Shown: positions 1,696 through 54,100 of the stretch, one piece after another
Layout: the number at the start of each line of letters is the position of its first letter
Position numbering within the stretch: the stretch's first letter is position 1
Assembly (NCBI GenBank): GCA_963844965.1
Contig: CAWJQC010000007.1
Location: forward strand, 96,001-160,000
Source: an uncultured bacterium
Lineage (GTDB): Bacteria; Patescibacteriota; Minisyncoccia; UBA6257; 2-01-FULL-56-20
Length of the DNA stretch: 64,000 bases
Direction: 5' to 3'
The notes under the pieces: generated by a model
What the model saw: the letters and a program-made list of their open reading frames with translations, nothing else
Told to the model about the DNA's origin: nothing
Databases searched by the model: none
Program-made: the position numbers and the translations under genes

Positions 1696-2436
1696 TTGAG
1701 CCCGCCGCCAATAATTTATAAGATGAACACGCAAAATTTGGACAAGTCCGGGATATGCTTCATCATTCTGCACGGTTTCGCTTCAGATCCCGATCCGCTC
1801 AAGCCTATAAAAAGTTATCTTGAGAAGATCGGATGCGCGGCGATAGCGACAAATTTTTGGGGCGACGGCGTCGTATCCGATTTTTCCAAGTTGAGAATTG
1901 AGCCGTGCATTGAGAATCTTGATTCTTTGGTCAAAAAAGTCAGGAGCAAATGCCGACTTGTGGTTGGTGTCGGTATAAGCCTCGGCGGTTCAATATTGAT
2001 TGAATACGCCAAAAATCATTCAGAATTGGATTATATCGTGAGCGTTGGGACGCCGTTCAGATTAAAGAACAGAAAATTAATATCTATCGGCCTTTTTTTG
2101 CTTCCCATCATCAATCCTGTGTGGAATTTAATAGATAAAATAAAAATATTGAGGTTGCCTCCAATCGGTGCCTCAAAAACAGTTGTGAATTTTTTGGAGA
2201 GGCAATGTTTGGAAAATTTGGACAAAGTAAAGACACCCCTTCTCTTCCTCCATAGCTGCAAGGATCCCATAGCCGATTACAGAGCGGTAGGCGAGTACGC
2301 GGAAAAAATTTTGAACGCGCCCAAAAAGATAATTTTATTTGAGAACGGGAGCCACGAGATAAATTACGATTCGGAAACCATATGCGAGAATATAATGAAA
2401 TTCGTCGGGCTGACGCGAAACGTCAACCGGAAATGA
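1696..2436 (+). CDS. alpha/beta hydrolase (esterase/lipase-like)
   Basis: Nucleophile elbow GISLGG, candidate acid KDPIAD and His in GSHEI. ILHGFASD matches the fold's N-terminal strand. The true start may be the ATG at 1723 (MNTQNL). Confidence 0.6.
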   Translation: MSPPPIIYKMNTQNLDKSGICFIILHGFASDPDPLKPIKSYLEKIGCAAIATNFWGDGVVSDFSKLRIEPCIENLDSLVKKVRSKCRLVVGVGISLGGSILIEYAKNHSELDYIVSVGTPFRLKNRKLISIGLFLLPIINPVWNLIDKIKILRLPPIGASKTVVNFLERQCLENLDKVKTPLLFLHSCKDPIADYRAVGEYAEKILNAPKKIILFENGSHEINYDSETICENIMKFVGLTRNVNRK

Positions 2437-2508
2437 CGCATTTCAGATTCTGGTTGCGGCTGGTCGTTTCGCATTTTTGTATCATGGGCGCGAGAGGTTA
2501 TAATAATA

Positions 2509-3234
2509 GTGATGCTTGAGATAAAAAATCTCGTAAAAAAGTTCGGTCCGGTGGGGGCGGTGAACAAAGTGACGCTTAACGTGAAAGCCGGAGAAATTTA
2601 TGCACTGATTGGGCCGAACGGTTCCGGAAAGACCACGCTTATAAAAACCGTCGCCGGACTTCTGCGGCCGACGGCGGGCGAGGTGCGCGTCGGCGGGGCG
2701 GATGTGAAAAAGGATCCCGCCGCGACAAAACAGCTGATAGGCTATGTTCCGGACGAACCGTCCGTCTGGCCGGCGATGACCGGGGAGGAGTTTTTGCATT
2801 TCACGGGCGCGCTTTTCGGAGTCGCGGAGAACGAACGCGCGAAAAAAATAAGCGGGTTGCTCAAAATTTTCGGCTTGGAAGGAATAGAAAAGGGGTATTT
2901 TGAGGATTATTCCCGCGGCAACAAGCAGAAGTTCACAATTATCGCGGCACTGCTCCATAAACCGAAACTGCTTCTGGTTGACGAACCGATCGTAGGCCTT
3001 GACCCGACATCCGCCGAGGTCGCGAAAAACGAATTCAAGAAATTCGCCGCCGGAGGCGGCGCCGTGCTTCTCGCGACTCACACGCTTCCCGTGGCGCAGG
3101 AGATCGCGGACACTATCGGCGTCTTGAGGGAAGGAAAACTTCTTGCTTCGGCGCCCTTCCCGAAACTCGTTTCGCGGGCCAGGCTCGGGCGTAGCGCCTC
3201 GCTTGAGGATGTGTACCTCGTGCTCACAAAATAA
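2509..3234 (+). CDS. ABC transporter ATP-binding protein
   Basis: Walker A GPNGSGKTT, Q-loop, signature/Walker B region (LLLVDEP), His switch. ATG at 2512. Confidence 0.85.
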   Translation: MMLEIKNLVKKFGPVGAVNKVTLNVKAGEIYALIGPNGSGKTTLIKTVAGLLRPTAGEVRVGGADVKKDPAATKQLIGYVPDEPSVWPAMTGEEFLHFTGALFGVAENERAKKISGLLKIFGLEGIEKGYFEDYSRGNKQKFTIIAALLHKPKLLLVDEPIVGLDPTSAEVAKNEFKKFAAGGGAVLLATHTLPVAQEIADTIGVLREGKLLASAPFPKLVSRARLGRSASLEDVYLVLTK

Positions 3235-4919
3235 TGTTCGCTTATTTACTTCGTTTCCGGTTTTTACAGGCCCGCCGTTATTTCAAAAACAGGCGCCTCG
3301 CCAAGGCCATAACGGCCTTGATCTTCCTCGCAGTCATATTCCTTGTGGCGGTCGGCATCTACGTTTTTTTCCGCTGGGAGTTCCGGCTCACGTCCGCGGA
3401 CCAGTATCTGAAATCCGCCCTGCCTCTCTATCTCTTTGAGTGGCTTTTCTTCGTTGTTTTCGCTCTCGTCGCGGCGAGTGCCTTCGTTACCGGCCTCTTC
3501 ACGCTTTTCCGCGGTGAGAACGACGGCTGGCTCATCGCCTCGCCGAAATTCAAAACTGTTTTCTGGAGCGCTTACGCGAGAATTTTTCTTTCCTCCGTCT
3601 GGCCGCTTTTGATCGTTGCCCTGCCTGCCTTCCTCGGTTTCCGCGCCTCATACAATATCGGACTCGCGGGAATTGCGCTCGGACTTTTGGCAATGGTGTT
3701 TTTGGTCGGATTCGCCGTTTCGCTCGCGGTTTTTATCGTGATGCTTTGCGCGTATATCTTGTCCGTTCCGTCAAAGAAAAATTTTTTGACCATTGGGCGG
3801 GTCGCGCTTCTCGTCGCGCTTATTTTCGTGGCATTCGTTTTCTTCGCCTGGCAGAGGATCGGAACGGCGGATATTTTGAAACTGTTCGCGCCGGTCAGTC
3901 CGTCGTGGAATTTCTCCCGTACAGATGTTATTCTCGGGCAGTTCAGGATTTTCCCGTCGCATCTTGTTGCGCTCACCCTTTTCGCTTTGCAAAATAATCT
4001 GGTGGGTGAGGCGTTTCTCGCGGTTATCCAGCTCGGTGTTATGTTTATTTTGGGATTTCTTCTCGTATGGATTTCGTCCCTGACATATCTGGAGTTGTGG
4101 CAAATTTTGCGCGAGGGGCATCTTCAGGCGAAAACTGCGGTGCGCGGAGTGAGAACGGGGCCGGTTCGCTTCCCGCGGTATTTGAAGAGTCCGCTCGGCG
4201 CGTTCTTTGAAAAGGAAGCGCTCGTCAACTTCCGCGAACTTCGGAACGTCCTTTGGTTCGGTTTTCTCTTTTTCCTCTGGCTCGTGCAGGTGGCGGCCGG
4301 GTTTTTCATCCGCCGCAACATGGTTCATTACGGGACAAGCCAGCTCGCGTCCGTGGCTTTGCTTGAAGCGCTGGAAATAGTCGTCGCGGTTTATTTCGCG
4401 AGCGCCTTCGTTCTGCGCTTCGCTTTTCCTTCGTTCAGCACGGAGCGCAAGACCGCCTGGATCTTCGGCAGCGCGCCTTTGAAGCTTGAAAAAGTTTTTT
4501 TGGCAAAACTTTTGTTTTACGGAGCGGTTTTCATGGCGATGGGGTTAGCCGTGGGCGCCGCGAATTCCTTCATCATCGGCGTTCCTCTCGCGGATGCGGT
4601 GCTATTCCTCTTTTTTGTCGCGCTCGCTATCGCTTTTGTCACCACATTCGGGCTTTGCATGGGAACAGTTTACCCGAATTTTGACACCGACGACCCGGAA
4701 GTTCTGAGCACGTCGCTTGCCGGCCTCGGATTCATTTTCGGCTCGCTCATATACGGCGGCGCGGGCTCGCTTGCGTTCTATGTGTTCCTCGCGGGCGGCG
4801 GCCCGCTTGGCCTCGTCGCTTTCGGAATTTTATCCGTCCTCGGCATCGCGGTGCTTTTGGATTGGGCGTTCCGCTCGCTCCGCACATTTGAATTCGTGAA
4901 AGAAATTTCGGCAGGTTGA
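3234..4919 (+). CDS. ABC-type transporter permease (multi-pass membrane protein)
   Basis: 561 aa with many hydrophobic segments. Start overlaps the stop of the upstream ABC ATPase (TAATG), implying translational coupling. Confidence 0.6.
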   Translation: MFAYLLRFRFLQARRYFKNRRLAKAITALIFLAVIFLVAVGIYVFFRWEFRLTSADQYLKSALPLYLFEWLFFVVFALVAASAFVTGLFTLFRGENDGWLIASPKFKTVFWSAYARIFLSSVWPLLIVALPAFLGFRASYNIGLAGIALGLLAMVFLVGFAVSLAVFIVMLCAYILSVPSKKNFLTIGRVALLVALIFVAFVFFAWQRIGTADILKLFAPVSPSWNFSRTDVILGQFRIFPSHLVALTLFALQNNLVGEAFLAVIQLGVMFILGFLLVWISSLTYLELWQILREGHLQAKTAVRGVRTGPVRFPRYLKSPLGAFFEKEALVNFRELRNVLWFGFLFFLWLVQVAAGFFIRRNMVHYGTSQLASVALLEALEIVVAVYFASAFVLRFAFPSFSTERKTAWIFGSAPLKLEKVFLAKLLFYGAVFMAMGLAVGAANSFIIGVPLADAVLFLFFVALAIAFVTTFGLCMGTVYPNFDTDDPEVLSTSLAGLGFIFGSLIYGGAGSLAFYVFLAGGGPLGLVAFGILSVLGIAVLLDWAFRSLRTFEFVKEISAG

Positions 4920-5001
4920 TTTTGAGCCGGAAAGGGCAATAATGCAGTGGAGATTTGCGGTTGAGGAAATTTAAAAAGTATGATAAAATAAGAACAACGG
5001 G

Positions 5002-6027
5002 ATGGATAAAAAACAGATTATACAATATATAGAAGGCGCGCGGCACTCGCGCATTATAACCTACCTTACGAGCGACAGGCAGGGGCCGTTTAACGCGCGG
5101 ATAGCGATGGACATTGTGCCGCTTGTGAGCAAACAGCTTCGGAATATAGGGAAAACGCAGAATATAGACCTTTACCTTTATAGTGTGGGCGGGGATACGA
5201 TGGCGCCGTGGCGGCTGGTGTCTATGATCCGCGAATATTGCGACAAATTTTCCGTGCTGGTGCCATATAAAGCGCACAGTGCGGCAACGATGGTTGCGCT
5301 TGGAGCGGATGAAATTGTGATGAGCGACCTTTCGGAGCTTTCGCCGATTGATCCCTCCACCGCGAACGTTTTCAATCCGATTGACCCGGCGAATCCGCAA
5401 AATCGCATTCCGATTTCGGTTGAGGATGTGATGGCATATTTTGAACTGGCAAAAAATAAATTCGGCATAAAAAGCGACGAAGATTTAGCCCGCATATTTA
5501 TGAAATTCGTTGAAGCCAATCCGCAAATTCATCCGCTCGCGCTTGGAAACGTAAACCGCATCCATAACCTTATTCGTATCCTTGCGAAGCGGTTGATCAA
5601 AAGCCACAAAACGCCGCTCAAAGAAGAAGAGGTGGAAAAAATCGTTGATTACTTCACCGAAAAATTATATTCTCACCAGTATTTCATCGGTAGAAAAGAA
5701 GCGAAAGACGATTTGGGGCTTAAAACCGTCGTTGACGCCGACGCCAATCTTTCCAAAGCGATGTCCGACCTCCTGGAGGAATACAACAAAGATTTGGATT
5801 TTGGGAAAATCTGGAATCCCGAAGGCGAATTGGGCGCGAACGCCGTGCAGACCCGAAAGGATTATAAAATTGCCTACATTGAGAGCCGCCAGCTTTCAAA
5901 TTATTATGATATCTCCGTTGAGTACAGAAAACAGCAGGTAAATATGGTCCAACAAACGCCGCAAGGACCAATTCAGGTTCCGCAGGAACAAGTCGGGTTC
6001 AAAATCATCGGGCAAGGGTGGAAATAG
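5002..6027 (+). CDS. ClpP/crotonase-fold serine protease-like protein (S49/SDH-family-like)
   Basis: Motif block YLYSVGGDTMAPWRLVSMIREY...VPYKAHSAATMVALGADEIVMSDLSELSPIDP resembles the ClpP-fold SDH/SppA proteinase family. Assigned by eye only. Confidence 0.45.
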   Translation: MDKKQIIQYIEGARHSRIITYLTSDRQGPFNARIAMDIVPLVSKQLRNIGKTQNIDLYLYSVGGDTMAPWRLVSMIREYCDKFSVLVPYKAHSAATMVALGADEIVMSDLSELSPIDPSTANVFNPIDPANPQNRIPISVEDVMAYFELAKNKFGIKSDEDLARIFMKFVEANPQIHPLALGNVNRIHNLIRILAKRLIKSHKTPLKEEEVEKIVDYFTEKLYSHQYFIGRKEAKDDLGLKTVVDADANLSKAMSDLLEEYNKDLDFGKIWNPEGELGANAVQTRKDYKIAYIESRQLSNYYDISVEYRKQQVNMVQQTPQGPIQVPQEQVGFKIIGQGWK

Positions 6028-6029
6028 CC

Positions 6030-6710
6030 ATGAATTTTTCTGATTACAAGAATTCTATTTTACTGCCCGATCAATCTGCTTGGCAACAGGCGGAGTATTG
6101 GATTACTGAATCGAATATCAATGTTTTCAGCTTTCTTTCCTCTCAAAACGTTTCCATCAAAACTACGAGTTCTTCTGCTAGAGAGCTTTCATTCCAGTCG
6201 TACGTTCAGAATTTGTTTGTCAACGACCTTTCGAATACAGCGTCAGAATTAAATAGTAAGGAATCCTTTGTTTTGTCTTCCATTAATGGCTCTTTGACTT
6301 TTGAAAAATTAAGCCCCTTGGGATTTCCGGCACAAGTTATTCCAGATAAAGAGTTGGGTTCTTTAATAAAATCAAACCAATTTCCACTTTGGGATTCCTC
6401 GCCCTTCTTTTTGAGAATGAAAAGGAATAGGCGCAGTCAAGCTGATATCGAGCATTTTTATCTTGGGAGATATTTACAGAAGAATAAGCAGCCATTTTTC
6501 GTTTTTACAAATGACGACGACCAGATCCGGCAGGCTCAGCTTGAAGGATTTAAATTTATGCGGCCGCCAGACCTTCTGGTGTGGATGGTTAAAGATACGT
6601 TTGTCACGCGACAAAAAGCCGTGTGGGCTTACGAGAAAGCAAAAAAACATAATGCGCGATGGGCGAAAGCAGGCCTAAGATTCAGAGATATTCTGAACAA
6701 GTGTAGGTAA
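6030..6710 (+). CDS. hypothetical protein, probably co-transcribed with the upstream protease-like gene
   Basis: ATG at 6030 lies 2 nt after the upstream stop. 227 aa, no recognisable motif. Confidence 0.4.
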   Translation: MNFSDYKNSILLPDQSAWQQAEYWITESNINVFSFLSSQNVSIKTTSSSARELSFQSYVQNLFVNDLSNTASELNSKESFVLSSINGSLTFEKLSPLGFPAQVIPDKELGSLIKSNQFPLWDSSPFFLRMKRNRRSQADIEHFYLGRYLQKNKQPFFVFTNDDDQIRQAQLEGFKFMRPPDLLVWMVKDTFVTRQKAVWAYEKAKKHNARWAKAGLRFRDILNKCR

Positions 6711-7756
6711 CTTAGCGCAATGCCCTCTCTTAACTGGATTGGGAAAGAAAAAATCGTAAATCACGACAAAGTTAAATGACCGAGTTGAAAAATCGGACTT
6801 TATATTTCGGCGACAATCTGGAAATCCTACGCGAGAAAATTCCCGACGAGAGTTTTGATTTGATTTACCTTGACCCGCCGTTCAATTCCAACCGTGCCTA
6901 CAATGTAATTTATAAGGAAGGGTTGCAGGACAGCCCGGCACAAATTAAGGCCTTTGAGGATTCTTGGCATTGGACGCCGGAGGCGCAGGCAACTTTTGAG
7001 GAACTTGTCGGCATGCGGCAATCAAGGACGAAAATCAACGCTGACATTGTCAATTTGATGCAGGCGATGGAAAAACTCGTGGGACACAATGATATGCTTG
7101 CGTACCTTACAATGATGACAGTTCGGCTCATTGAACTGCGGCGCGTTTTGAAGTCAACCGGCAGTATTTATCTGCATTGCGACCCGACCGCAAGCCATTA
7201 TTTGAAAATCGTGATGGACACGATTTTCGGAAAACAGAATTTCCAAAACGAAATTATTTGGTGTTATGAAATCGGAGCTAGAAGTAAAACACACTGGGGG
7301 AGTAAACACGATGTAATTCTCTTTTATACAAAATCAGGAAACTTTATCTTTAACACAAGGGCCGTTGCTGTGCCACGGAAAGAAGGGACACACATGAAAA
7401 CCGCAGTAGACGAAGAAGGAAGAGAATATCAAGAAAAGAAGGATGCAAAAAGTGGTAAGGTCTATAGATATTATCTTGATGAAGGCGCCATCCCTCCCGA
7501 TTGGTGGGTGGGAATTCAGCAATTAAATCGTGAAGCACAAGAAAGATTGCATTATCCCACCCAAAAACCCGAAGCGCTTCTGGAAAGAATTATTAAGGCA
7601 TCGTCTAACGGACCTCCGCCAAGTCCTTCGCTGATTGCGACAGAGACAGAGGAGGTGGAGGAGAATAGAGGCGATTGGGTTCTTGACCCGTTTTGCGGTT
7701 GCGGCACGACGGTTGCCGTCGCCGAGCGGCTGAAAAGAAACTGGGTCGGCATTGAC

Positions 7757-8326
7757 CCGCTCCGCCGCAAGCCCCGGCCTTTAGGCCGAGGATAAGGCGA
7801 CCCCGTAGCCCCGAGCGAAGCGAGGGGCGGAGGGCTTATTTGCCTGTTCCCACTGGTTTCTGCCGGTGCGATAATGAAGATAATGCCCTCTGGATTCTGG
7901 CCAAGCAACCACAGCTATACGCGATGTTTGTACCACGTTGTTTTCTGCCCAAAGTACCGCCGCTCGATACTGCGAGGGGACATGGTCGGGCGACTCAAGA
8001 CATTGTTCTTTCAAGCCGCCAAGATGAATAAATGGTTCATCCATGAAGCGCAGATAATGCCCGACCATGTCCATCTATTGCTTCAAATTCCTGCTACCCT
8101 GACGGTTGCCAAAGCGGTGTTTTATCTCAAAGGCGGTACGTCCAGGGCTGTCAGAAAAGAATTTCCCGAGCTGGAAGAATTCCTCTGGGGAGACAGCTTG
8201 TGGCAGGATGGTTACTTTGCCGAAACCGTTGGCCGTCAAAACGAAAAAGCGATGAGAGAATATATCAGAAACCAGTGGGAACAGGAGCCGAACACAAGCC
8301 GCGGGCTTTAGCCCGCGGTGATTGAC
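7757..8326 (+). mobile_element. minimal IS200/IS605-family insertion sequence (tnpA only)
   Basis: 570 bp carrying a Y1-transposase gene. Subterminal hairpins with TTTA loops at both ends (cggccTTTAggccg at about 7774-7790 and ccgcgggcTTTAgcccgcgg at about 8297-8318). ATTGAC is present at both junctions. Removing the element restores the MTase-Mrr reading frame. Confidence 0.75.
7874..8311 (+). CDS. tnpA: IS200/IS605-family transposase TnpA (HUH Y1 transposase)
   Basis: 145 aa. HUH motif HVHLLL, catalytic Tyr in DGYFAETVG, N-terminal YHVVFCPKYRR block typical of IS200 TnpA. Confidence 0.85.
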   Translation: MKIMPSGFWPSNHSYTRCLYHVVFCPKYRRSILRGDMVGRLKTLFFQAAKMNKWFIHEAQIMPDHVHLLLQIPATLTVAKAVFYLKGGTSRAVRKEFPELEEFLWGDSLWQDGYFAETVGRQNEKAMREYIRNQWEQEPNTSRGL

Positions 8327-8941
8327 ATTACGATGCTTGCCATCAATTTAATAAAACACCGGCTGATAGACGGCTTGGGAGTGGGACGGAACGAAATATG
8401 CACCGACGGTATTCCAAAGGACTTGAGCGGAGCGGAGGAACTGGCCAAAAAGGACAGATTTGCCTTTGAGTATTGGGTTTTGGATTTGGTGAACGCCGTT
8501 CCGGCGCAAAGCAAGACGAAAGAAAATATGCGCGGCGCGGACAAGGGGATTGACGGCATAATTACCATCGTAAAGTCGGTCAAGGACAATAAAAAAGAGC
8601 TTGGGAAAATTTTGGTTCAGGTGAAAAGCGGCGGCGTCCATCGCGACGACGTAGCCACGCTTAAGAGCGACGTTGAACGGGAAAAGGCCGTCGGCGGCGT
8701 TTTCATCACGCTGGAAAAGCCGACTCAGCCGATGAGAACGGAGGCGGTTGAGGCGGGAACGTTCAGGGTTGACTACTCCCAGGAAAATTTGCCGAAAATT
8801 CAGATTATAACGGTTGAGGACTTGTTGAGCGGCAAGAAACTGGACCTGCCTCCGGCCGTGGCGCTTCAGGAAACCTACTATAAGGAAGCAAAACCTGCGA
8901 AACCCGAAAACAGGGCAAAAAAATTGGGAATATAGAATTTT

Positions 8942-9595
8942 ATGAATTTGGATGAATTTAAACTGCAGAATTTGGGCATTGACAAAGAAAAATTCGGAAA
9001 AATTCTCAGCTTTGTAGACTTCGGCAACGTTAATTATTGGTATGAGAAAGACCGGCGCGACTGGGAGGACAACACCATTAAGCCGAATCAAAGATTAATA
9101 ATTGATATCGCAAAACTCGCTCAATTTTTGAATCTTTTCTCTGATCAAAAGCGCTTTTACTACGGATGGCACAAGCGCATGAAGAGATCTTGGCATATTT
9201 TGGTATTGGCGGAGAGAAATGGATTTGTTAAAATTACCAAACCAATACAATTCATAAAGCATTATCTTGAAGAGTTAGAGTTGGCGAGCGCAAACGGGAG
9301 GCTTGTTAAAGAAGACTTGATGGGCAGGTATATTGAAATTCCAAAAAGCAATTTTGATGTAGAGATAAGCGTTGATTCAATTCGTTTGCTGGACAAATAC
9401 AATACATTTTGCTTGCTTTCCGGCGATAGCGATTTTACTTATTTAAACCGATTTTTAAAAAGAAGGGGGAAGAAAATTATTGTTATTGCTGCAGGTCAAA
9501 TACTTCATTCCCTAAAAGAAACCGCGGACTTATATATAAACGCGCAGACAATTAAGGGAAGCATTGCCGCCGTAAAAGAAACCTCGCCCGGTTAA
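8942..9595 (+). CDS. NYN/LabA-like domain protein (putative ribonuclease)
   Basis: LLSGDSDFTYL plus KKIIVIAAG block characteristic of the NYN/PIN-like fold. Starts 6 nt after the Mrr-fragment stop. Confidence 0.6.
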   Translation: MNLDEFKLQNLGIDKEKFGKILSFVDFGNVNYWYEKDRRDWEDNTIKPNQRLIIDIAKLAQFLNLFSDQKRFYYGWHKRMKRSWHILVLAERNGFVKITKPIQFIKHYLEELELASANGRLVKEDLMGRYIEIPKSNFDVEISVDSIRLLDKYNTFCLLSGDSDFTYLNRFLKRRGKKIIVIAAGQILHSLKETADLYINAQTIKGSIAAVKETSPG

Positions 9596-9724
9596 GGGCG
9601 AGGTTTGGATATCGGATCCGTCTCCGACGGACAGGGTAGCTTGAGGCTACAAAGTAAGCATAGCATGGGCAATTATTAAAAGTCAATGAACTGTGGATAA
9701 TTAAAGGAGTAATCAAAATACAAC

Positions 9725-10507
9725 ATGTCCCAATATTACAAGCCGAAACGCGGCAGGAATTTATACAATCCGGCGAATCCGGAGCCGTTCGTCGTCAGCC
9801 GTTCCGGCATTGACCTATATATAGAGTGCCCGCGGTGTTTTTATCTGGACAGGCGTCTTGGCACCGCTAGGCCGCCGGGTTTTCCTTTCAGTTTGAACAC
9901 GGCGGTTGATGCTTTGCTCAAAAAAGAATTTGACATCCACCGCGCCGCGAACACGCAGCATCCCTTGATGAAAAAATATGGCATTGACGCCGTGCCCTAT
10001 GCGCACGAAAAGCTGGAAGAGTGGCGCGATTCCCGCCTTCGGGGCATAAAATTTTTCCACGAGCCGACGAATCTCACGATAAAAGGCGGCATTGACGACG
10101 TCTGGGTAAATCCGAAAGGAGAATTGCATATCGTGGATTACAAAGCTACCTCAAAAACATCGGAAGTTAACATTGACGCCGAGTGGCAGAGCGGATACAA
10201 GCGGCAGATGGAAGTTTACCAGTGGCTTTTCCGCAAGAACGGCTTTGATGTTTCCGACATCGGCTATTTCGTTTACTGCAACGGCGACACGGACAAAAAA
10301 GCGTTTGACGCCAAGCTGGAATTTAACGTCAAGGTGATTCCCTACAAAGGAAACGACGGCTGGGTGGAGGAAACGATTCGCGAGGTAAAAAGCTGCCTTG
10401 ATTTTGATGAACTTCCCGCGGCGAACGACAGCTGCGACTGGTGTGCCTACTTCGGCGCGAGAGAACGGCTGGAGAAAGGAAACAGCGACTTTATTGAGAG
10501 CGCGTGA
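9725..10507 (+). CDS. Cas4-like PD-(D/E)xK nuclease with Cys cluster (solo, no CRISPR nearby)
   Basis: RecB-nuclease motifs GGIDDV ... LHIVDYKA ... Y..Q, with Cys pairs CPRC (N-terminal) and CDWC (C-terminal) consistent with a Cas4/AddB-type 4Fe-4S site. Confidence 0.6.
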   Translation: MSQYYKPKRGRNLYNPANPEPFVVSRSGIDLYIECPRCFYLDRRLGTARPPGFPFSLNTAVDALLKKEFDIHRAANTQHPLMKKYGIDAVPYAHEKLEEWRDSRLRGIKFFHEPTNLTIKGGIDDVWVNPKGELHIVDYKATSKTSEVNIDAEWQSGYKRQMEVYQWLFRKNGFDVSDIGYFVYCNGDTDKKAFDAKLEFNVKVIPYKGNDGWVEETIREVKSCLDFDELPAANDSCDWCAYFGARERLEKGNSDFIESA

Positions 10508-10558
10508 TTTGGAGGCGTTCTTCATCAAATATTTCGGTGTCTCCATTAGCTTTTTAAT

Positions 10559-11248
10559 ATGCTTAGGAGTTTTCTGGGCAAACGTTTGCTTGTTCTTGTG
10601 GCGCATCCCGACGACGAGAGTTTCGCGGCCGCCGGAACTATCCACAAGAATCGCGAGGCGGGCGGAAAGAACGCCATCATTTGCGTTACCCGCGGCGAGA
10701 GGGGAAAGTCCCATCTCGCAAGGCCGCATACGTCGCGCGAGCTTAAAGCCATCCGTTCAAAGGAGCTTGAAGCCGCGGCGCGGTTTTTGAAGGTGATGGA
10801 ACTGCGCATTCTTGATTTTCCCGATGGAAGAGTCACGGAGAATAAAAATAAAATTTACGAAAGATGCCTGCCACTTGCGCGGTGTTTGAAGCCCGACGTG
10901 ATTTTGAGCTTCGGTCCGGACGGAATTTCCGGGCATCTTGACCACATCGCCGTCGGTTCCGTGGCGAAAAAAATAGCAAGAGACCTGAAAGTTCCTTTCA
11001 TAGCTTTCGCTGCTTCGCCGCATCTCGTCAAGAATTTCCGAAGTCTTGAACAACGTAGGAAATTCGGCGTGTATTCAAAGAGCGTCCGTCACGCGGCGCA
11101 CGATCTGAAGATAGCCGTCAATTCTAAAATAAAATCAAAGACGCTGCGGTTCCATAGATCGCAGATAGGCGATGTTGGGCAGTTCCGCTCCGAAAACAGG
11201 GTGATTGCCAAAAATTTTTTGCGATACGAATATTTTCGCGTGTTGTGA
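10559..11248 (+). CDS. PIG-L/LmbE family deacetylase
   Basis: N-terminal LVLVAHPDDESF motif (AHPDDE zinc-binding signature). Confidence 0.7.
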   Translation: MLRSFLGKRLLVLVAHPDDESFAAAGTIHKNREAGGKNAIICVTRGERGKSHLARPHTSRELKAIRSKELEAAARFLKVMELRILDFPDGRVTENKNKIYERCLPLARCLKPDVILSFGPDGISGHLDHIAVGSVAKKIARDLKVPFIAFAASPHLVKNFRSLEQRRKFGVYSKSVRHAAHDLKIAVNSKIKSKTLRFHRSQIGDVGQFRSENRVIAKNFLRYEYFRVL

Positions 11249-11333
11249 GCAGCGGGCGCGGCTTGCGCGAGCGTTTCAGCGCCGGGGAAAATCCGGAGAA
11301 AAAATCGCGATGTCGGGAGATTTGCTGCGGAGG

Positions 11334-11930
11334 TTATCGGGAATATTTTTTTGTTATCCTGCGGTAAATTCTTACTAGTACAAAAATTACGACTCCGACG
11401 GCAACGATGCCGGCGATGGTGCTTTGGATACCGGAAAAATCGCCCCAATAGCTTCCTGCGGCGTATCCAAGGGACAGCGCAACGAAAGGTTCAATAAAGT
11501 TACCTAAGAAATCATATGTGATGAAGGTTTTGAACGGCACCTTCACGAGGCCGGCGAGAATCGCCGCAATTGGGCTTAGCGATCCCGCAAAGCGGGTCGC
11601 GAATACCGTCGCCGCGGCATCAGCAACCAGTTCTTCTTTGAGCCGGGTAAAAAAGACAATTTTTTCCAGCCGCAGGACGCGGACAATCCACCTGCTGTAT
11701 TTTCTTGTAACCGCGTAGTCGGTTAAGTCGCCGAGCGTGTTGGCGGTAACGGCAACGGTGAGCGCCAGCCAATAACTGAAATACCCCTGGCTTGAAAACG
11801 CTCCTATGGCGAGGAGCATGGCATTGCCGGGAAGCGGCAGAATCACCGCGGCGGAATAGACGATGATGAAGATCGCCTCATATCTATATAGTAGTACGTA
11901 GGATAGAAGAGAACCGAGCAGGGGAATCAT
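11334..11930 (-). CDS. DedA/TVP38 family membrane protein
   Basis: 198 aa, multi-TM, with DedA-like conserved G...GD..DY core. Confidence 0.6.
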   Translation of the reverse strand: MIPLLGSLLSYVLLYRYEAIFIIVYSAAVILPLPGNAMLLAIGAFSSQGYFSYWLALTVAVTANTLGDLTDYAVTRKYSRWIVRVLRLEKIVFFTRLKEELVADAAATVFATRFAGSLSPIAAILAGLVKVPFKTFITYDFLGNFIEPFVALSLGYAAGSYWGDFSGIQSTIAGIVAVGVVIFVLVRIYRRITKKYSR

Positions 11931-12391
11931 TTTGTTGCGCTGGGTACCGTGCTTGTTGAGTAGGTGCGCACCGCGTTTTGGACGACGGCTAAGAACACGG
12001 TTGCCGTGATGTGCTGGTTACTCGCGCAGCGGTTAAGAGAAACGCGCGGATAATGCGGGTCCGATATCCCCAGTTTTGTTTTGAGATAATACGGCTGCAG
12101 GTTGAAAATTCTGTTTATGTAGTCAAATGTCATCCAGCCCTGGATGATGCCGGAGTTTTCTGGTGAAAGCGGGCCGCGCCCGCGAAGAGTGTTCAAAAAG
12201 GAGGTGTGGTCGCGCATAATTTGCGACCTGCGCAAGGTCCGGTATTCCCTGTAGAGCGCGAAACACAAAACGACCAGTATGATGCCGAGAACCGCGATGA
12301 CGTACTTCAGGTACGAACCGGTGTGGTTTGGTTTTGATATTGTCATACCGTTAATTATAATCCTTTTAGTTTTAGAAAACCCGATATTCAC
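11927..12391 (-). CDS. hypothetical membrane-anchored protein
   Basis: 4-nt overlap with the downstream DedA gene start. Single TM segment. No motif. Confidence 0.35.
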   Translation of the reverse strand: MNIGFSKTKRIIINGMTISKPNHTGSYLKYVIAVLGIILVVLCFALYREYRTLRRSQIMRDHTSFLNTLRGRGPLSPENSGIIQGWMTFDYINRIFNLQPYYLKTKLGISDPHYPRVSLNRCASNQHITATVFLAVVQNAVRTYSTSTVPSATK

Positions 12392-12421: not shown

Positions 12422-13042
12422 ATGAGAGGCGCTTATTTTTTTATTGTATTAGCGGGAATCGCGGCACTGTCTGCTCCCGTGGCGCGGGTCGCGGCGGATG
12501 TGAATGCGGCTTCGTCAACGGGGAATATTCGCCCGACCATTCCTGCCGGTGTGGACGTGAACCGCGTGCCGGTTACGGAGCGCGGCTGGGAAGTCGGGAG
12601 GACAGACGATATAGAAATTGTCGGATTGAAAGCTCCAGCCGTTGTGCCGGCTGTCGCGACGACAAGCGACCCTTTGCTCGTTCAAACCGTGAGCGACATG
12701 AGAACGTTCGGGCGGGACGTAGCGGAGCGTGACGCGAATATCAGATTGATTATGGTCAGTCCCGAGACGACGGAGGTGGATTATGCCGTCCAGGGAAAGT
12801 TTCTTTGGATCGTGCCAATGAAAGTAAACGTAGATGTGTCGGTTGATAAGGAAGACGACGTGAAAGTAGAACTGCCGTGGTACGGAGCTTTCGTGAAAAT
12901 GGCGGCGAGATTTGACGTTTGGGACATTGAACAGACGCTTGATGAGCGCGCCGTCTCGGCGCCGGAGGATGAGTTCAGCCGTCAGGCGTGGACCCTGCAG
13001 GAATTGGCCGCGATCATGAAGGAATATACCGCGCGTAATTAG
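12422..13042 (+). CDS. hypothetical secreted protein
   Basis: N-terminal signal-peptide-like segment MRGAYFFIVLAGIAALSAPVARVAA. Confidence 0.45.
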   Translation: MRGAYFFIVLAGIAALSAPVARVAADVNAASSTGNIRPTIPAGVDVNRVPVTERGWEVGRTDDIEIVGLKAPAVVPAVATTSDPLLVQTVSDMRTFGRDVAERDANIRLIMVSPETTEVDYAVQGKFLWIVPMKVNVDVSVDKEDDVKVELPWYGAFVKMAARFDVWDIEQTLDERAVSAPEDEFSRQAWTLQELAAIMKEYTARN

Positions 13043-16673: not shown

Positions 16674-17420
16674 ATGAAAATAAGGAACATCGGCGCGGGG
16701 AAGGCAACAGTCCTCGTGGGCGTTCTCAAGCGCAAGCGGGATTTGGACATATTTCTCAAAGAACATTGGTATAGGATCCCGCTTCTTAAAGTGCCCAAGC
16801 GGAAGTTTCGTTATTTGGCGCTGTACGAACCGGCGCGCTTTGGACGGCGAAGCAAGTGCATCAGATATTACGCCCGCGTCGCGCGGTGCCTTGTGGAGAA
16901 GCGGCGCGAACTGCTGCCGGACGAAAGGGAGCATCCGAACGCCGAAGAGAGGTATCTGAGGATTCGCGTCGGCAGGGTCACGCGGTTGCCGCGGCCAATT
17001 CGGAACGTGCCGCCGCGCCGCCTGTCTTTCGGTTTCGCCGACCTTGACCGGCTGCTTGCCGTGAAGACCATTTTACAGCTTTACCACGTCGCTCCGACCG
17101 AGGAGATCGTCGGCGCGGCGCTCAAGCGTTCTCACATCCGCGCCATTCCCCAGTGCCATGTTTCGTGCGCCGGGAAACATTACTGTTTGGATTTCGCGGT
17201 CCATTGCGAACGCGGCTCAATTGCCGTTGAGTGCGACAATAAGAAAGCGCATGCCGGCGCCCGCCAGCAAGCGTACGATAGCGCCAAAGACACTTTTCTT
17301 TTTAATCATGGCTGGACGGTCATCCGGCTGAAGGAGGAAGCGATACTCTCCGATGTCCAATCCTGTGTTTTGCGGATACGGCGCGCCATAAAAAACTTCG
17401 GTGGAATGGCCTGTCGGTAG
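16674..17420 (+). CDS. DUF559 (Vsr-like PD-(D/E)xK endonuclease) domain protein with N-terminal extension
   Basis: C-terminal block YCLDFAVHCERGSIAVECDNKKAH ... FLFNHGWTVIRL typical of DUF559/Vsr-like domains. Confidence 0.55.
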   Translation: MKIRNIGAGKATVLVGVLKRKRDLDIFLKEHWYRIPLLKVPKRKFRYLALYEPARFGRRSKCIRYYARVARCLVEKRRELLPDEREHPNAEERYLRIRVGRVTRLPRPIRNVPPRRLSFGFADLDRLLAVKTILQLYHVAPTEEIVGAALKRSHIRAIPQCHVSCAGKHYCLDFAVHCERGSIAVECDNKKAHAGARQQAYDSAKDTFLFNHGWTVIRLKEEAILSDVQSCVLRIRRAIKNFGGMACR

Positions 17421-17578
17421 TTGCCAGAAATTCGCGCCGCCATAAAAATTTCCGCGGGTGTTTGCCTGCTGGTAGGGCGGTTATGTTTTCGGATTTTTTC
17501 CGATTTCGTTTCCGCCGAGGGCGGATTAGCTTCCGATAGAAACCTACGGCGAGCCGTCGGGTAATTCAAGCGTCCTCA

Positions 17579-18367
17579 CCGCCCGCCGGTTAACAATTGT
17601 TAACCGGCGGGCGGGAAGAGCAGGGTGTAATGAGGCGCGTAGCTCACCTGGCTGCTAATGGCGCGGCGCGATTTTCTCGCGCTAATTTCCGGGATGCGAA
17701 CCATTTCAGGATTTTCGGCAGATCGTTTTTGCTGATAACAAAAGCCCTCCCGATGCGGGTTGCCGGAATTCTCTTTTTGTCTATATTTTTGAAAACCGCG
17801 ACGCGGCTGATGCCCAAAACTTTCGCAAGTTCCGCCGTGGATATGAATTCCTTGTTGATCTCGTCCGCCATTCTCCGCATTTTCATTTTTCCACCTTAGC
17901 ACAATATCCGCGGGTTAACAATTGTTAACTTTGTCGGAATGGTAATCGGCCATAGTTAAAATCATAGTCAAAATGGTGGCTCATCTAGTGATTTGCCTCT
18001 GGTTGGGGGCTCTGAGTATCAACCAGTACCGGTTAACAATTGTTAACTTTGTCAGAATAGTGATTTGACATAGTTAGAACAATTAGAATGGTGACCTGCC
18101 ATAGTCGCATAGTCACGTGGCTCGTCCTTGGTGGTGGACTTTGGGCATCAATCGGCGCGGGTTAACAATTGTTAACTTTGTCAGAATGGTAATCTGTAGC
18201 CGGCGGGATCTCTGGCGGAGTCCTCCGCCAGGGGCGTGGTATCCCGGACATCAACTGGCGCCGGTTAACAATTGTTAACCGAGCAACAGAAAACAAAACC
18301 GAGAAAAAATCCCCCCAGTCATTTTTTCATCGTTTTTCCGTCCGCAGGTTAACAATTGTTAACCTGC
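17579..18367. repeat. array of six copies of the perfect palindrome GTTAACAATTGTTAAC, within degenerate tandem units of about 120 bp
   Basis: Core copies at 17589, 17913, 18031, 18161, 18264 and 18348. First copy extends to a 36-bp perfect palindrome (17579-17614), fifth to 20 bp, sixth to 24 bp. Units 2-4 share TTTGTCrGAATrGTrAT after the core and CATCAAyCrG before the next one. Confidence 0.85.
17644..17886 (-). CDS. excisionase/MerR-type helix-turn-helix DNA-binding protein
   Basis: 80 aa. ISTAELAKVLGISRVAVFKNIDKKRIPATRIGRAFVISKNDL matches the Xis/AlpA-family HTH_17 pattern. Confidence 0.6.
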   Translation of the reverse strand: MKMRRMADEINKEFISTAELAKVLGISRVAVFKNIDKKRIPATRIGRAFVISKNDLPKILKWFASRKLARENRAAPLAAR

Positions 18368-18484
18368 ACTGTGCGCTGCCTGTTGACTATTACTGACTAT
18401 TAAAAAATGCGGGTAGATAAAGCGAGCACGGTATGGAGTTGGGGCCGCTTGACGATGCGCGGTCGCGGTGTTAATTTCATAAAT

Positions 18485-39374: not shown

Positions 39375-40763
39375 ATGGATAATAATCCTATGCCAGTTCC
39401 GCCGGAATTAAGCTTGCCGCCTCGTCCGCGTTCTTCGCGAGTAAAATGGATTTTAGTCATCCTCATCGTGATTGTAGCGGTCGGCGCCGGTTTTTACTTC
39501 GGGTCAGCGAGGCGCGCTCAGGAACTTTATTCCGGCGGCACCGAGCCCGTCGGATCAATTCAGAAACTCCAAAGTAATTTTTCTTACAAGCCCTGCGTCC
39601 AAGCCAGTTCTTCGGATGCCATCGGCGCCCTCGTGAATGCCAACAATTGCTTTGCTTTCAACGCGTACGAGGATATTAAAGAATCATCCAATGGAAATAT
39701 TTTTTTCTCACCCTACAGTATCTCTGAAGCGGCCGGAATGGTGTATGAAGGAGCACGAGGCGAGACTGCGTTGCAGATACAGAACGTATTTGAGTTTCCC
39801 GATAACGCCGACGCCAGAAAATCGGCACTACTCGCAATATACAACGATTTGAATTCTACAAGCAGCGAGTATGCGTTAAATGTCGCGAATGCGGTGTGGG
39901 TAGAGCGCGATTTTCCGATTCTGGATGATTACTTGAGCACCGTCCGGCAATACTACGGCGGCGAAGCAACGAATCTTGATTTTGCCGGCAATCCCGGGCA
40001 AGCGACGGACGCAGTAAATAAGTGGGTCTCGGACAAAACCAGCGGCAAGATTCCGACGCTTTTTGACGGTCCTCTGAGCCAGCAGGCCAAACTTGTTCTT
40101 ACGGACGCCATTTATTTCAAAGGTTCCTGGGCTCACGCCTTTGAGGCCGGTCAAACGAAACCAGCGACGTTTCGCCCGATGGGAGGAGCGAGCGTTCAAG
40201 TCCCAACAATGCAGTCGGTCGGATCGGATAACGAGTACGCTTACGCCGAAACGGACGACCTCCAATTATTGGAGCTGCCCTATAAAGGGAACAAGTTGGA
40301 TATGGTGATTATTTTGCCGAAGAGCGACGATCCTTCGCACGTTGAAAGTTTGCTCTCGCCGCAAAATCTCACCGACTGGGAAAGGCAGGCTTTTAGCCGG
40401 AAGGTTGACATGTATATTCCGAAATTCACATTTAGCGAAGGATACGATCTTGGTCAGCTGCTTCAGGGGATGGGCATGACACTGGCCTTCGATTCGCATC
40501 CGGGGATAGCCGATTTTTCCGGAATTGACGGCAAAAAAGACCTTTACATTGACGTCGCAGTTCACAAAGCGTTCGTTGCCGTGGACGAAAAAGGAACGGA
40601 GGCTGCCGCGGCGACAGGCTTCGGTTTCGCTCCGACGATGGCTGTTTTCGTGCCGCCTCCGCGAGTAATTTTCCGCGCCGACCACCCGTTTATCTTTTTA
40701 ATTCAGGATGTTGAAAACGGCGACATTCTTTTCTTGGGCAAAGTCGTGGATCCTAAAAGTTAA
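39375..40763 (+). CDS. serpin (serine protease inhibitor) with N-terminal membrane anchor
   Basis: FSPYSISEAAGMVYEGARGET, NAVWVERDF, NAIYFKGSW and hinge/signature FRADHPFIFLIQD. Confidence 0.8.
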   Translation: MDNNPMPVPPELSLPPRPRSSRVKWILVILIVIVAVGAGFYFGSARRAQELYSGGTEPVGSIQKLQSNFSYKPCVQASSSDAIGALVNANNCFAFNAYEDIKESSNGNIFFSPYSISEAAGMVYEGARGETALQIQNVFEFPDNADARKSALLAIYNDLNSTSSEYALNVANAVWVERDFPILDDYLSTVRQYYGGEATNLDFAGNPGQATDAVNKWVSDKTSGKIPTLFDGPLSQQAKLVLTDAIYFKGSWAHAFEAGQTKPATFRPMGGASVQVPTMQSVGSDNEYAYAETDDLQLLELPYKGNKLDMVIILPKSDDPSHVESLLSPQNLTDWERQAFSRKVDMYIPKFTFSEGYDLGQLLQGMGMTLAFDSHPGIADFSGIDGKKDLYIDVAVHKAFVAVDEKGTEAAAATGFGFAPTMAVFVPPPRVIFRADHPFIFLIQDVENGDILFLGKVVDPKS

Positions 40764-51150: not shown

Positions 51151-54100
51151 ATGAAGAAGTATAACTTCGGAGAAATAGAGAAAAAGTGGCAGGAGGCGTG
51201 GGAGAAAGAAGAGCTTTACCGTGCCGACGACAAGAGCAAGAGAGAAAAAAAATATGTTCTGATTGAATTTCCGTATCCGTCTGGCGAGGGGCTACACATG
51301 GGGCACCTCCGGCCTTATGTTGCTGGAGACGTTTATAGCCGCCATTTGCGGATGTGCGGATATGAAGTTATGTATCCTATCGGCTGGGACGCGTTCGGAC
51401 TGCCCGCGGAGAACTATGCCATCAAGAACGGAATTCAACCGTCAATCTCAACGGCGCGGAACGTGAAAAATGCGAAGCAGCAGCTCAAAAGCTGGGGGAT
51501 GGGTTTTGACTGGTCGCGCGAGATAAATACGACCGACCCGAATTACTATAAATGGACACAGTGGATATTCCTGCAGCTTTGGAAAGCCGGCCTGGCTTAT
51601 GAAGCCACCGGTCTTATAAATTGGTGCCCGAAGGACAAAACCGGTTTGGCGAATGAGGAGGTAATTAACGGTTGCTGCGAGCGTTGCGGGGCGCTCGTGG
51701 AAAAAAAGGAAATGCGGCAGTGGTACCTCAAAATTACCGCCTACGCCGAAAAACTCTTGGAAGGTTTGAAGACGCTTGATTGGCCGGAAAAAATAAAAGT
51801 TCAGCAGGAAAACTGGATCGGCCGTTCGGAAGGAGCGGAAATAGATTTTGAAGTCGCTGGGCAAAAACCGAAGAAGGTAATATTGATGCATGGGAAAGAT
51901 GCAAATCCTGACGAAAAGTGGTATCCGTGGCTTGCGGAAGAAGTTCAAGAGCGCTGTACTAAATTTATTGCGCCTCGTCTGCCGGAATCCGACAATCCCG
52001 AACTTGAAGCATGGCTTCGTGAAATAGAAAAAGCGAATCCCGATGAAGATACTATTCTTATTGGACATTCTCGCGGTGGGGTGGCGATTTTGAGGTGGCT
52101 GGAAAATCTTAGGTCGGGGAAAGTCGTTAAAAAGGTAATAATAGTAGCTTCGGACAGGGGAGATGCCAAAAAGGAATCGCGGGGTTTTTTTGGCAAACCC
52201 TACGATTTCAAAAAAATACGGTCTCATTGCGACAGTTTTGTTGTTCTACATTCAAGGGACGATGAATGGGTGCCATTTGAAGCGGGTGAATATATTGCCA
52301 AAAATCTGAACGCCAACTTTTTGATTTTTGACGGCAGGGGACACTTCGGAAAAAAATTGCCAAAACAGGAAATTTCCGAACTCGTTGGTGAAATTTTTCC
52401 GAGTATCAAGGTTTTCACCACCCGCCCCGACACGCTTTTCGGTGCGACGTATATGGTTTTGTCGCCGGAACACGAACTTATATTAAAAATTAAAAATCAA
52501 ATATTAAATTGGGGGGAAGTTGAAAAATATATAAAAGTTGCTCAGGGCAAATCAGAGGAAGAACGTATTGCCGAAGGAAAGGAAAAAACCGGCGTGGAGC
52601 TCAAAGGAATCAAGGCGATTAATCCGGCGACGAAGGAAGAAGTTCCCATTTGGGTGGCGGATTATGTGCTTGCGGGATATGGCACGGGCGCGATCATGGC
52701 TGTGCCGGCGCACGACGAACGGGATTTTGAATTTGCGAAGAGGTATAAATTACCGATCAGGGAAGTTATAGCCCCGCTATTTATCGAGAAAGGAGGTCTA
52801 GATGCTTGGAGAGAGACCGGTGTTACAAAAAAACGCAACACAGTCAGTTGTATCATCAAACATTGGTCCGAGGATAAGTACCTTTGTCTGCGCTGGGTGC
52901 ACGATAACTGGCGCGGATTTGTAATCGGTGGCGTGGAAGGTGGCGAAGACATCATAGAAGCTGCCTGTAGGGAAATACGAGAAGAAACCGGATTCAAGAA
53001 TGTAAAATTTATAAAAGTACTTGGAAACGAGATTCACTATAAATTTTTTGCCTCCCATAAAAACGAAAACAGATGGAATGTTGGTCACGGGATTTATTTC
53101 GAACTCTTGAATGGCGAAAGTGATGAAATTTCTGAACAAGAAAAGAAATTGCATAGCGTTGTGTGGATTGATAAGGATAAAGTGGCCGATTTTATCGCCA
53201 ACGACCCCAGCGATTCTTTGTTGTGGGAGCGCCTTAATGGCGTATCGCGGCCGTTTATTGAGGAAGGAGTTCTGGTTGGTTCTGATAAATTCACCGGTAT
53301 GAATTCCGAAAAAGCCAAATGGGAAATTACGAAACTCGTCGGTGGGAAGAAACAAATTCAATATCGCCTGCGCGACTGGGTTTTTTCGCGCCAGCGCTAT
53401 TGGGGCGAGCCGATTCCGCTCGTCCACTGCGCGAAGTGCGGGATTGTTCCCGTGCCGGAAGAGGAATTGCCGCTGAAACTCCCGGAAGTGGAGAAATACG
53501 AACCTACCGGCACCGGCGAATCGCCGCTTGCTGCCGTGGATTCCTGGGTGAATACAAAGTGTCCTGAGTGCGGCGGGAGAGCGAAACGTGAAACTAACAC
53601 CATGCCGCAGTGGGCCGGAAGTTCGTGGTATTACCTCGCATACATAATGCGAGGAATTTCCCCGCCCGCGCCGACGCTTCGGCGGGCAGGCAATTTCCCC
53701 GCCAAAGGCGAGGCTAGCCAAGAGCTACAATTTCCAATTTCCAAATATCAAGAAGCTTTTAGGCATTGGCTGCCGGTTGACGTTTATTTCGGCGGCATGG
53801 AGCATACGACGCTTCATCTTCTTTATTCGCGGTTTTGGCACCAATTTCTCTACGATAAAAAATTCGTGCCGACGCCGGAACCTTATCTGCGTCGCGTGCC
53901 GCACGGGATAATTCTCGGTCCCGACGGCGAGAAGATGTCTAAAAGCCGCGGCAATATCGTGAGTCCCGACGAAATCGTGAAAAATTTTGGAGCGGATTGC
54001 CTCCGCATGTACGAACTATTCCTTGGTCCGCACGAGGCGACGGTTAGCTGGAAAAGCGAGGGCATTTTGGGGATTTCGCGGTTTCTGGAGCGCGTTTGGA

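Follow-up and report, generated by a model that had tools for sequence, protein, structure and literature searches.

A tightly spaced run of open reading frames (ORFs) on the + strand extends from 5002 to 11248 of the window, the 64-kb stretch of patescibacterial DNA analyzed here. A first-pass annotation had described positions 5002-10507 as an accessory, defense-like set of genes that might form a multigene system. Profile searches recovered all of the listed genes at their coordinates and on the + strand, with the domain content that had been assigned to them. The run opens with a 341-aa SDH-type ClpP-fold serine-protease-like protein (5002-6027; PF01972), the first gene of a conserved two-gene module whose other member is the protease's partner, a PIN-like nuclease of 226 aa (6030-6710, within an ORF open from 6018). 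This nuclease represents a rare family, for which Pfam has no model. Next is an N6_N4 DNA methyltransferase (MTase; 6776-7756, ORF to 7795; PF01555, E 1e-43), the N-terminal part of a single-chain MTase-Mrr restriction-modification (RM) gene. This gene is split by an IS200/IS605-family insertion sequence (IS; 7757-8320) carrying a Y1 transposase (tnpA, 7874-8311; PF01797, E 9e-39), and its C-terminal PD-(D/E)xK part, a Mrr_cat/NA-iREase1 fragment (PF04471, PF22722), lies on the far side (8321-8935, ORF from 8318). A 217-aa NYN/LabA-like nuclease (8942-9595; PF01936, 55.7 bits versus 24.2) starts 6 nt after the Mrr stop codon, as had been noted, in the same orientation and with no terminator between the two, and a further gap of 129 nt separates it from a solitary Cas4-like, RecB-family PD-(D/E)xK nuclease (9725-10507; PF12705, 50.5 bits versus 22). 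The LmbE/PIG-L deacetylase gene named with the others (10559-11248; PF02585, E 3e-31) falls beyond the end of the described stretch at 10507. The closest homologues of these proteins carry names such as Paceibacterota, Parcubacteria, Wolfebacteria, and Liptonbacteria, all within the Patescibacteria, or Candidate Phyla Radiation (CPR), which on its own places the source very probably in this group. A promoter and terminator scan of 4800-11400 was indistinguishable from shuffled sequence, so the operon boundaries are drawn from gene spacing alone.

We think it likely that the region is a mosaic rather than a single system: a Cas4-like gene of the genome backbone, an accessory stretch with three independent modules (the SDH-PIN pair, the broken MTase-Mrr gene, and the NYN gene), and LmbE as a bystander. 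Defense roles for the accessory modules are suggested by their contexts. In the closest available relative, contig L151, the Cas4-like gene is 89% identical in protein and 85% in DNA, and the gene order is an LTD-domain protein (homologue of the window gene at 175-1539), the Cas4-like gene, and a homologue of 12422-13042. Compared with L151, the window carries some 8.1 kb of additional DNA upstream of the Cas4-like gene (1696-9595), and downstream of it another ~1.9 kb that contains LmbE (10559-12391); the segment 1696-9595 is thus missing from L151 between the same flanking genes. GC contents of the NYN, PIN, MTase, and SDH genes are 0.378 to 0.47, compared with a window mean of 0.494; NYN (0.378, the lowest in the region) and PIN are the most GC-poor genes, a hydrolase gene at 1696-2436 has a GC content of 0.425, and the Cas4-like gene has one of 0.512. 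Because it is absent from L151 and contains GC-poor genes, an accessory status of 1696-9595, upstream of the Cas4-like gene, is supported, with insertion being deduced from this one relative contig.

The proposal of a defense-island-like composition thus holds for part of the stretch. For 5002-9595 it is borne out by the accessory status of the segment, by the presence of the IS element, and by homologues of the NYN and SDH genes that recur in or beside RM loci, AbiEii, and DpnI (see below); it does not apply to 9725-11248. A scan with PADLOC-DB v2, of the kind suggested in the first-pass annotation, found no complete known defense system in the stretch. The strong matches were to MTase models alone (MTase_II, E 2e-52), with isolated matches for NYN (1.5e-5, weak) and Cas4 (5.8e-8) and none for the protease or its PIN partner. 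There is no CRISPR array in the 64-kb window, as reported; the accompanying claim that other cas genes are absent holds for ten large ORFs sampled, the window not having been scanned exhaustively for cas genes.

The first-pass annotation raised the possibility that the NYN, Cas4-like, and MTase-Mrr genes form an uncharacterized multigene defense system; the protease pair might or might not belong to it. The genes share a strand and are closely packed (Mrr to NYN, 6 nt; NYN to the Cas4-like gene, 129 nt), all three encode nucleic-acid enzymes, and in some DPANN archaea solo-Cas4 genes have RM genes as neighbors (Hudaiberdiev et al. 2017, PMC5704561). We nonetheless consider such a joint system very improbable, as the suggested check of co-occurrence in other genomes found next to none within the flanks examined. 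Around the Cas4-like gene, sampled as 80 species-genome loci with 10-kb flanks, an NYN gene is present within 10 kb in one of the 80 and an MTase in four, the latter at ~29% identity. Conversely, the window's MTase or Mrr domain was found at 0 of 59 metagenome NYN loci, and a true Cas4-like orthologue at one of them, 6 kb off and on the opposite strand. Intact MTase-Mrr homologues are solitary among housekeeping genes, one lying between GreA and an aminoacyl-tRNA synthetase and another among glycosyltransferases, with no NYN or Cas4-like neighbor at these loci. The Cas4-like gene also has the same flanks in L151, which is without all of the other genes, and there is the gap in GC content between NYN and the Cas4-like gene noted above. 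We therefore return to the mosaic and describe its components in turn.

The Cas4-like gene appears, from its distribution and sequence conservation, to be a stand-alone, vertically inherited gene of the conserved backbone, to which it belongs because the same genes flank it in L151. This conserved placement in a relative speaks against the gene being a defense partner, as had been proposed. It has more than 8000 homologues (66 to 89% identity among the matches listed) and is present in at least 596 species-representative genomes, at 61 to 73% identity, in many CPR lineages. The RecB-type nuclease motifs are conserved (GGIDD, IVDYK, and QMEVYQW, in 120 homologues), and four cysteines are invariant (C35, C38, C237, and C240), in a 2+2 arrangement of CxxC ... 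CxxC. In Cas4, and also in AddB, the Fe-S cysteines are instead arranged 1+3 (C ... CxxCx5C). Scores for the Cas4 family models fall under their cutoffs (PF01930, 17.5 versus 22.7; TIGR00372, 23.5 versus 65). The description of a Cas4-like protein with a four-Cys cluster is therefore right as to the RecB motifs and the four cysteines, but not as to the Cas4 cutoffs and cysteine pattern. A PDB sequence search with this protein returned nothing useful.

The genes adjoining the Cas4-like gene are heterogeneous and mostly housekeeping. Clustering of the flanking ORFs gave no conserved neighbor, the best being a generic ABC ATPase at eight loci, and among the 75 loci used for adjacency counts no cas family ranked among the shared neighbor families. 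RM genes are immediately adjacent at 0 of these 75 loci and within six genes at 8; in all eight of the latter (L009, L019, L024, L033, L053, L060, L074, and L075) they are upstream of the Cas4-like gene, with mixed strands, reflecting either chance or a weak positional preference. We also considered an AddAB-like helicase partner, which was ruled out, UvrD-type genes being found in only 2 of 141 adjacent genes. The Cas4-like nuclease most likely would act in DNA repair or end processing. Genes for solo-Cas4 are enriched in CPR, with mostly vertical inheritance, ordinary purifying selection, and unknown function (Hudaiberdiev et al. 2017, PMC5704561). The window gene shares with the solo-Cas4/PF12705 RecB family of CPR and DPANN described there a stand-alone PD-(D/E)xK domain, a Cys cluster, strong conservation, and the lack of CRISPR-cas nearby; it differs in its scores below the Cas4 cutoffs, its 2+2 cysteines, and the lack of any directly adjacent RM gene at the 75 loci. 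The neighboring LmbE gene is a bystander, unrelated to the other genes and without a defense link. It scores below the cutoff of the BshB2 model, it is missing at the corresponding position in L151, and it was next to the Cas4-like gene at 0 of the 80 species-genome loci; outside these 80, it was seen there in L001 alone, which is a fragment from this same organism.

The disruption of the MTase-Mrr gene by the IS element was confirmed by in silico deletion. The sequence ATTGAC is present on both flanks of the IS (7751-7756 and 8321-8326), giving an insert of about 570 bp that includes one ATTGAC copy; the left fragment stops with ...NWVGID at 7756, and the right fragment restarts with IDITML... 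at 8321. Removal of 7757-8326 (570 bp) restores the reading frame across ...NWVGID|ITML... and gives a product of 529 aa, which aligns over 99% of its length, at 55 to 74% identity, with intact proteins of ~500 aa having PF01555 and PF04471/PF22722 domains, of which there are hundreds. The insertion point is exactly between the MTase and Mrr domains, and the Mrr fragment (PF04471, E 3e-10; PF22722, E 8e-12) is 84% identical to the corresponding part of protein P0241 in L141. The transposase is a strong match to NF033573 (130.8 bits, cutoff 55). The right end of the IS has a strong hairpin (z -4.45), whereas at the left end there is no more than a short hairpin, CGGCC-TTTA-GGCCG, and this end is unconvincing overall (z -0.02); no second copy of the IS was found within the window.

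The MTase-Mrr family is widespread in CPR and looks like an active single-chain RM enzyme, because the catalytic motifs of both domains are conserved in an alignment of 114 intact homologues: DPPF and FCGCGTT (both invariant), the junction, D-G-x-DG, and QxK are all at least 98% conserved. These catalytic motifs are also kept in the window copy, which is not a single uninterrupted ORF but a recent casualty of the IS200-type insertion. We considered whether the Mrr part might be an inactive reader domain, PF22722 being named for an inactive endonuclease, but this was ruled out by the conservation of its D ... QxK residues at 98% or more. With single-polypeptide RM enzymes of the MmeI/Eco57I type (type IIC/IIG-like), the family shares the presence of a PD-(D/E)xK domain and an N6-adenine-type MTase in one chain, although the domain order and class are reversed, with a beta-class N6_N4 MTase first and Mrr_cat at the C terminus; moreover, activity is predicted here, and the window copy is disrupted. 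We note that the window MTase contains a stretch of ~19 aa (GPPPSPSLIATETEEVEEN; 7607-7663) that is missing from most of the 114 intact homologues.

The NYN protein, in which NYN is the sole domain found, belongs to a family with conserved FVDFGNV, NFDVE, and SGDSDF motifs (120 homologues), and has a weak match to structure 2qip in a PDB sequence search. It has 642 homologues, at 61 to 76% identity among the matches listed, far fewer than the Cas4-like gene, and NYN proteins single-linked at ≥90% identity are found in differing gene contexts. The location of this gene beside an RM gene proves to be a recurrent pattern, involving four kinds of RM system. In eight loci (L115-L120, L125, and L126), a type I operon carries NYN between its hsdS and hsdR genes, in the same orientation and with a 4-nt overlap with hsdS. 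In L130, it directly follows a single-chain enzyme with HSDR_N and N6_Mtase/Eco57I domains; in L131, it directly precedes an N6_Mtase/Eco57I-like gene, followed by a PD-(D/E)xK protein; and in L106-108, a TaqI endonuclease gene, accompanied by its MTase, comes directly after it. In L114, AbiEii, an SDH protein (75% identical), DpnI, and two NYN genes are found together. When NYN proteins are collapsed at 90% identity, an RM gene is immediately adjacent in 6 of 32 groups, compared with 0 of the 75 Cas4-like control loci (Fisher p 5e-4); treating the type I cases as a single event gives a p of 0.006.

Sequence comparison thus supports an association between the NYN family and RM genes, in which the NYN protein would be an RM-associated second-line nuclease. 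The hsdS-X-hsdR slot is the position of prrC in the type Ic system EcoprrI (hsdM-hsdS-prrC-hsdR), and PrrC and the NYN homologues that occupy the same slot are both predicted RNases without an antitoxin of their own. The two differ in that their folds are unrelated (NYN/PIN-like versus ABC-ATPase plus HEPN), and the neighbor in the window is a single-chain MTase-Mrr enzyme, not a type I system. An earlier survey of PIN-like nucleases reported some that are coupled to type I RM loci but none with type II systems (Matelska et al. 2017, PMC5499597). The NYN family resembles these nucleases in its type I RM operon location, the lack of an antitoxin, and an arrangement that is not conserved between close relatives, but it is also found beside type II-like single-chain enzymes (the window and L130), an Eco57I-like MTase (L131), and TaqI (L106-108). 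We regard the occurrence of this family beside four kinds of RM system, including type II, as new as a lead rather than as a finding.

Several other features of the NYN loci deserve mention. The eight type I operons have variable cargo between hsdM and hsdS: L115 and L117 have an SDH-like protease there, and others have either three small genes or a protein of 1167 aa. After hsdR comes a DUF45/M48-like gene. The proximity of SDH or SDH-like genes to NYN in L114, L115, and L117 represents only two distinct cases, and we do not claim a specific link between them. In one NYN lineage, represented by L087 (5310-8240) and L088, a 976- to 995-aa fusion of a UvrD helicase with a PD-(D/E)xK/Cas4-like domain is directly upstream of NYN, and RarA is directly downstream. 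Elsewhere in the window, a DUF559/MTES_1575 endonuclease-like protein (16674-17420) has a 56%-identical homologue in L092 (810-1556), two genes upstream of NYN, which argues that several accessory genes of the window travel together elsewhere. Where the GC content of the window is lowest (0.42), a 526-aa protein joins a LexA DNA-binding domain to an S24 self-cleaving peptidase and an N6_N4 DNA methyltransferase (21037-22617, -); the same architecture, at 496 aa, is found in L134 (6023-7513, -), two genes from NYN.

The protease and the gene downstream of it, which had been described as a coupled partner of unknown kind, constitute a conserved, translationally coupled two-gene module, in which the partner is a PIN-like nuclease. 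An exhaustive HMMER search showed the PIN family to be very rare (only 31 clusters), and alignments with the 31 representative clusters begin at residue 5 of the ORF from 6018. The true start is therefore probably the ATG at 6030, which is 2 nt after the protease stop codon and behind a GGTGG motif. The protein encoded at 6030-6710 has the PIN fold; of its four predicted acidic active-site residues, D139 and D162 are invariant, and conservation is 90% or higher at D14 and E52 among 20 family members. A beta element is inserted near residues 60-105. No match was found to it among existing sequence models (Pfam, NCBIfam, PHROG, PADLOC, and PDB sequences), and the family alignment is too divergent for pattern scans. 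The protease matches PF01972 at 53 bits (versus 31; E 3e-14), with the match covering only residues 2-123 and profile positions 36-162 of 286. It is not an equivalog of NF047768 (60 bits, cutoff 250), and it also matches phrog_11747 (E 4.7e-37). Its candidate catalytic serine is S93, within AHSAATM.

The context of the PIN gene was examined for seven homologues sharing 30 to 50% identity with the one in the window. An SDH protease, 61 to 81% identical to that of the window, is immediately upstream in L146, L148, L153, and L154; in L150 it is also upstream, with one 234-aa predicted membrane protein in between, and in L147 it is immediately downstream. The two genes are thus paired in 7 of 7 informative contexts, including the window, with L149 being uninformative at a contig edge. 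The SDH protease does occur without a PIN partner, as in L114. Other genes in the PIN neighborhoods include a DUF4258/DUF2283 pair, toxin-antitoxin (TA) genes, RhuM-Fic, and a serine recombinase. A RhuM-Fic gene lies three genes downstream of SDH-PIN in L146, and the window has a RhuM plus Fic/DOC gene at 19142-20107, flanked by a 30-nt direct repeat (19101-19130 and 20340-20369; 97% identical).

PIN domains are the toxins of VapBC type II TA systems, but here there is no small VapB-type antitoxin gene, and the upstream gene encodes instead the 341-aa ClpP-fold protease; the PIN protein, at 226 aa, is longer than VapBC toxins, has the inserted beta element, and is undetected by Pfam PIN models. 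The protease would gate the PIN toxin, making the pair an abortive-infection or addiction module. A scan for SDH protease relatives in viral contigs found none, PDB sequence searches with SDH yielded nothing useful, and we found nothing relevant in the literature on SDH proteases in defense or PIN contexts. A search of BFVD viral folds gave only weak matches (best E 5.5e-3), several being to "prohead protease" proteins of 436 to 763 aa, and these are not taken as evidence of protease-PIN fusions. As with NYN and its RM neighbors, we offer a PIN family that lacks an existing model and is obligatorily paired with an SDH protease as a new lead rather than a finding.

What these accessory genes do can be read in different ways. 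The stretch might hold two uncharacterized defense modules: a protease-gated PIN toxin, and NYN proteins acting as back-up effectors on several RM types (type I, type IIG-like, TaqI, and MTase-Mrr), in the manner of PrrC but with an unrelated fold. We put this forward tentatively and at low confidence. A narrower proposal for NYN is that it is a PrrC-like guard, a latent RNase that is held by the restriction enzyme and would be freed by a phage anti-restriction protein, with the partnership having been broken here by the IS. The hsdS-NYN-hsdR slot with its 4-nt overlap in eight loci, the position directly next to a single-chain RM enzyme that NYN has both in the window and in L130, and the conserved NYN catalytic motifs are all consistent with such a role, as are the coupling of PIN-like nucleases to type I RM loci (PMC5499597) and the fact that PrrC is silenced by its RM enzyme, as described in PMC2610378. 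However, NYN has no homology to the ABC ATPase and HEPN domains of PrrC, most of its homologues have no RM neighbor, an intact NYN gene beside a disrupted RM gene argues against strict dependence, and adjacency may be mere co-location in defense islands; we consider this guard role doubtful. It is similarly unlikely, in our view, that only the dead RM gene is related to defense, with NYN being a housekeeping RNA-processing nuclease, SDH-PIN a housekeeping pair for protein or RNA turnover, and RM adjacency a product of CPR gene shuffling. This would fit the fairly high conservation of NYN, the presence of housekeeping genes next to some of its homologues, the lack of PADLOC system matches, and the abundance of RM genes in CPR, as seen within six genes at 8 of the 75 Cas4-like loci. 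It fits less well with the patchy distribution of NYN (642 homologues versus >8000 for the Cas4-like gene), the varied contexts of NYN proteins linked at ≥90% identity, the enrichment over the control of direct adjacency to four RM types, the low GC contents of NYN and PIN, and the rarity of the PIN family (31 clusters) and its location near a serine recombinase, TA genes, and RhuM-Fic.

Several observations weigh against the mosaic and the defense roles suggested for its accessory modules. With a single relative contig, loss in L151 is as possible as insertion in the window, and the extra segment includes ABC transporter genes with a backbone-like GC content. For NYN, 26 of the 32 groups are not beside RM genes, some members adjoin housekeeping genes (RarA, G6PD-6PGD, and the CCA-adding enzyme), and none of the closest homologues (≥70% identity) is RM-adjacent; the NYN loci also lack phylogenetic independence, and just one gene family, that of the Cas4-like gene, served as the control. 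If NYN were a toxin restrained by its RM enzyme, one would expect harm from an IS that disrupts the latter, but the NYN gene seems intact. Finally, neither the protease nor its PIN partner is represented by a PADLOC model, and the PADLOC match to NYN is weak.

Patescibacteria have tiny genomes that mostly lack CRISPR, and their defense repertoire is poorly known. Solo Cas4-like genes in CPR, IS-inactivated RM genes, and PIN-like nucleases in type I RM loci are already-known kinds of element. A tempting false lead, the "solo Cas4," is removed as a core gene rather than a defense partner, and two leads remain: an RNase family associated with varied restriction enzymes, and a protease plus PIN pair that current defense databases do not recognize. 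If the NYN lead is true, the PrrC-type logic of a guard of the restriction system would extend to a new nuclease fold; if the SDH-PIN lead is true, a protease-regulated PIN toxin would join the known repertoire.

Some additional features of the window lie outside these modules. Between the DUF559/MTES_1575 gene (16674-17420) and an ORF without a Pfam match (18407-18967), which lies downstream of it, a single intergenic region contains six copies of a 16- to 17-nt palindrome, (G)GTTAACAATTGTTAAC, at 17571-18363, irregularly spaced at 325, 118, 129, 103, and 84 nt; from its sequence, this looks like an operator or binding-site array. An ORF of 1063 aa at 22799-25990 has no Pfam match at E 1e-5. 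A full-length serpin is encoded at 39375-40763 (PF00079, E 1e-106), in a CPR genome, and the leucyl-tRNA synthetase at 51151-54195 (1014 aa) has internal Ser_hydrolase (residues 244-400) and NUDIX (residues 582-678) matches.

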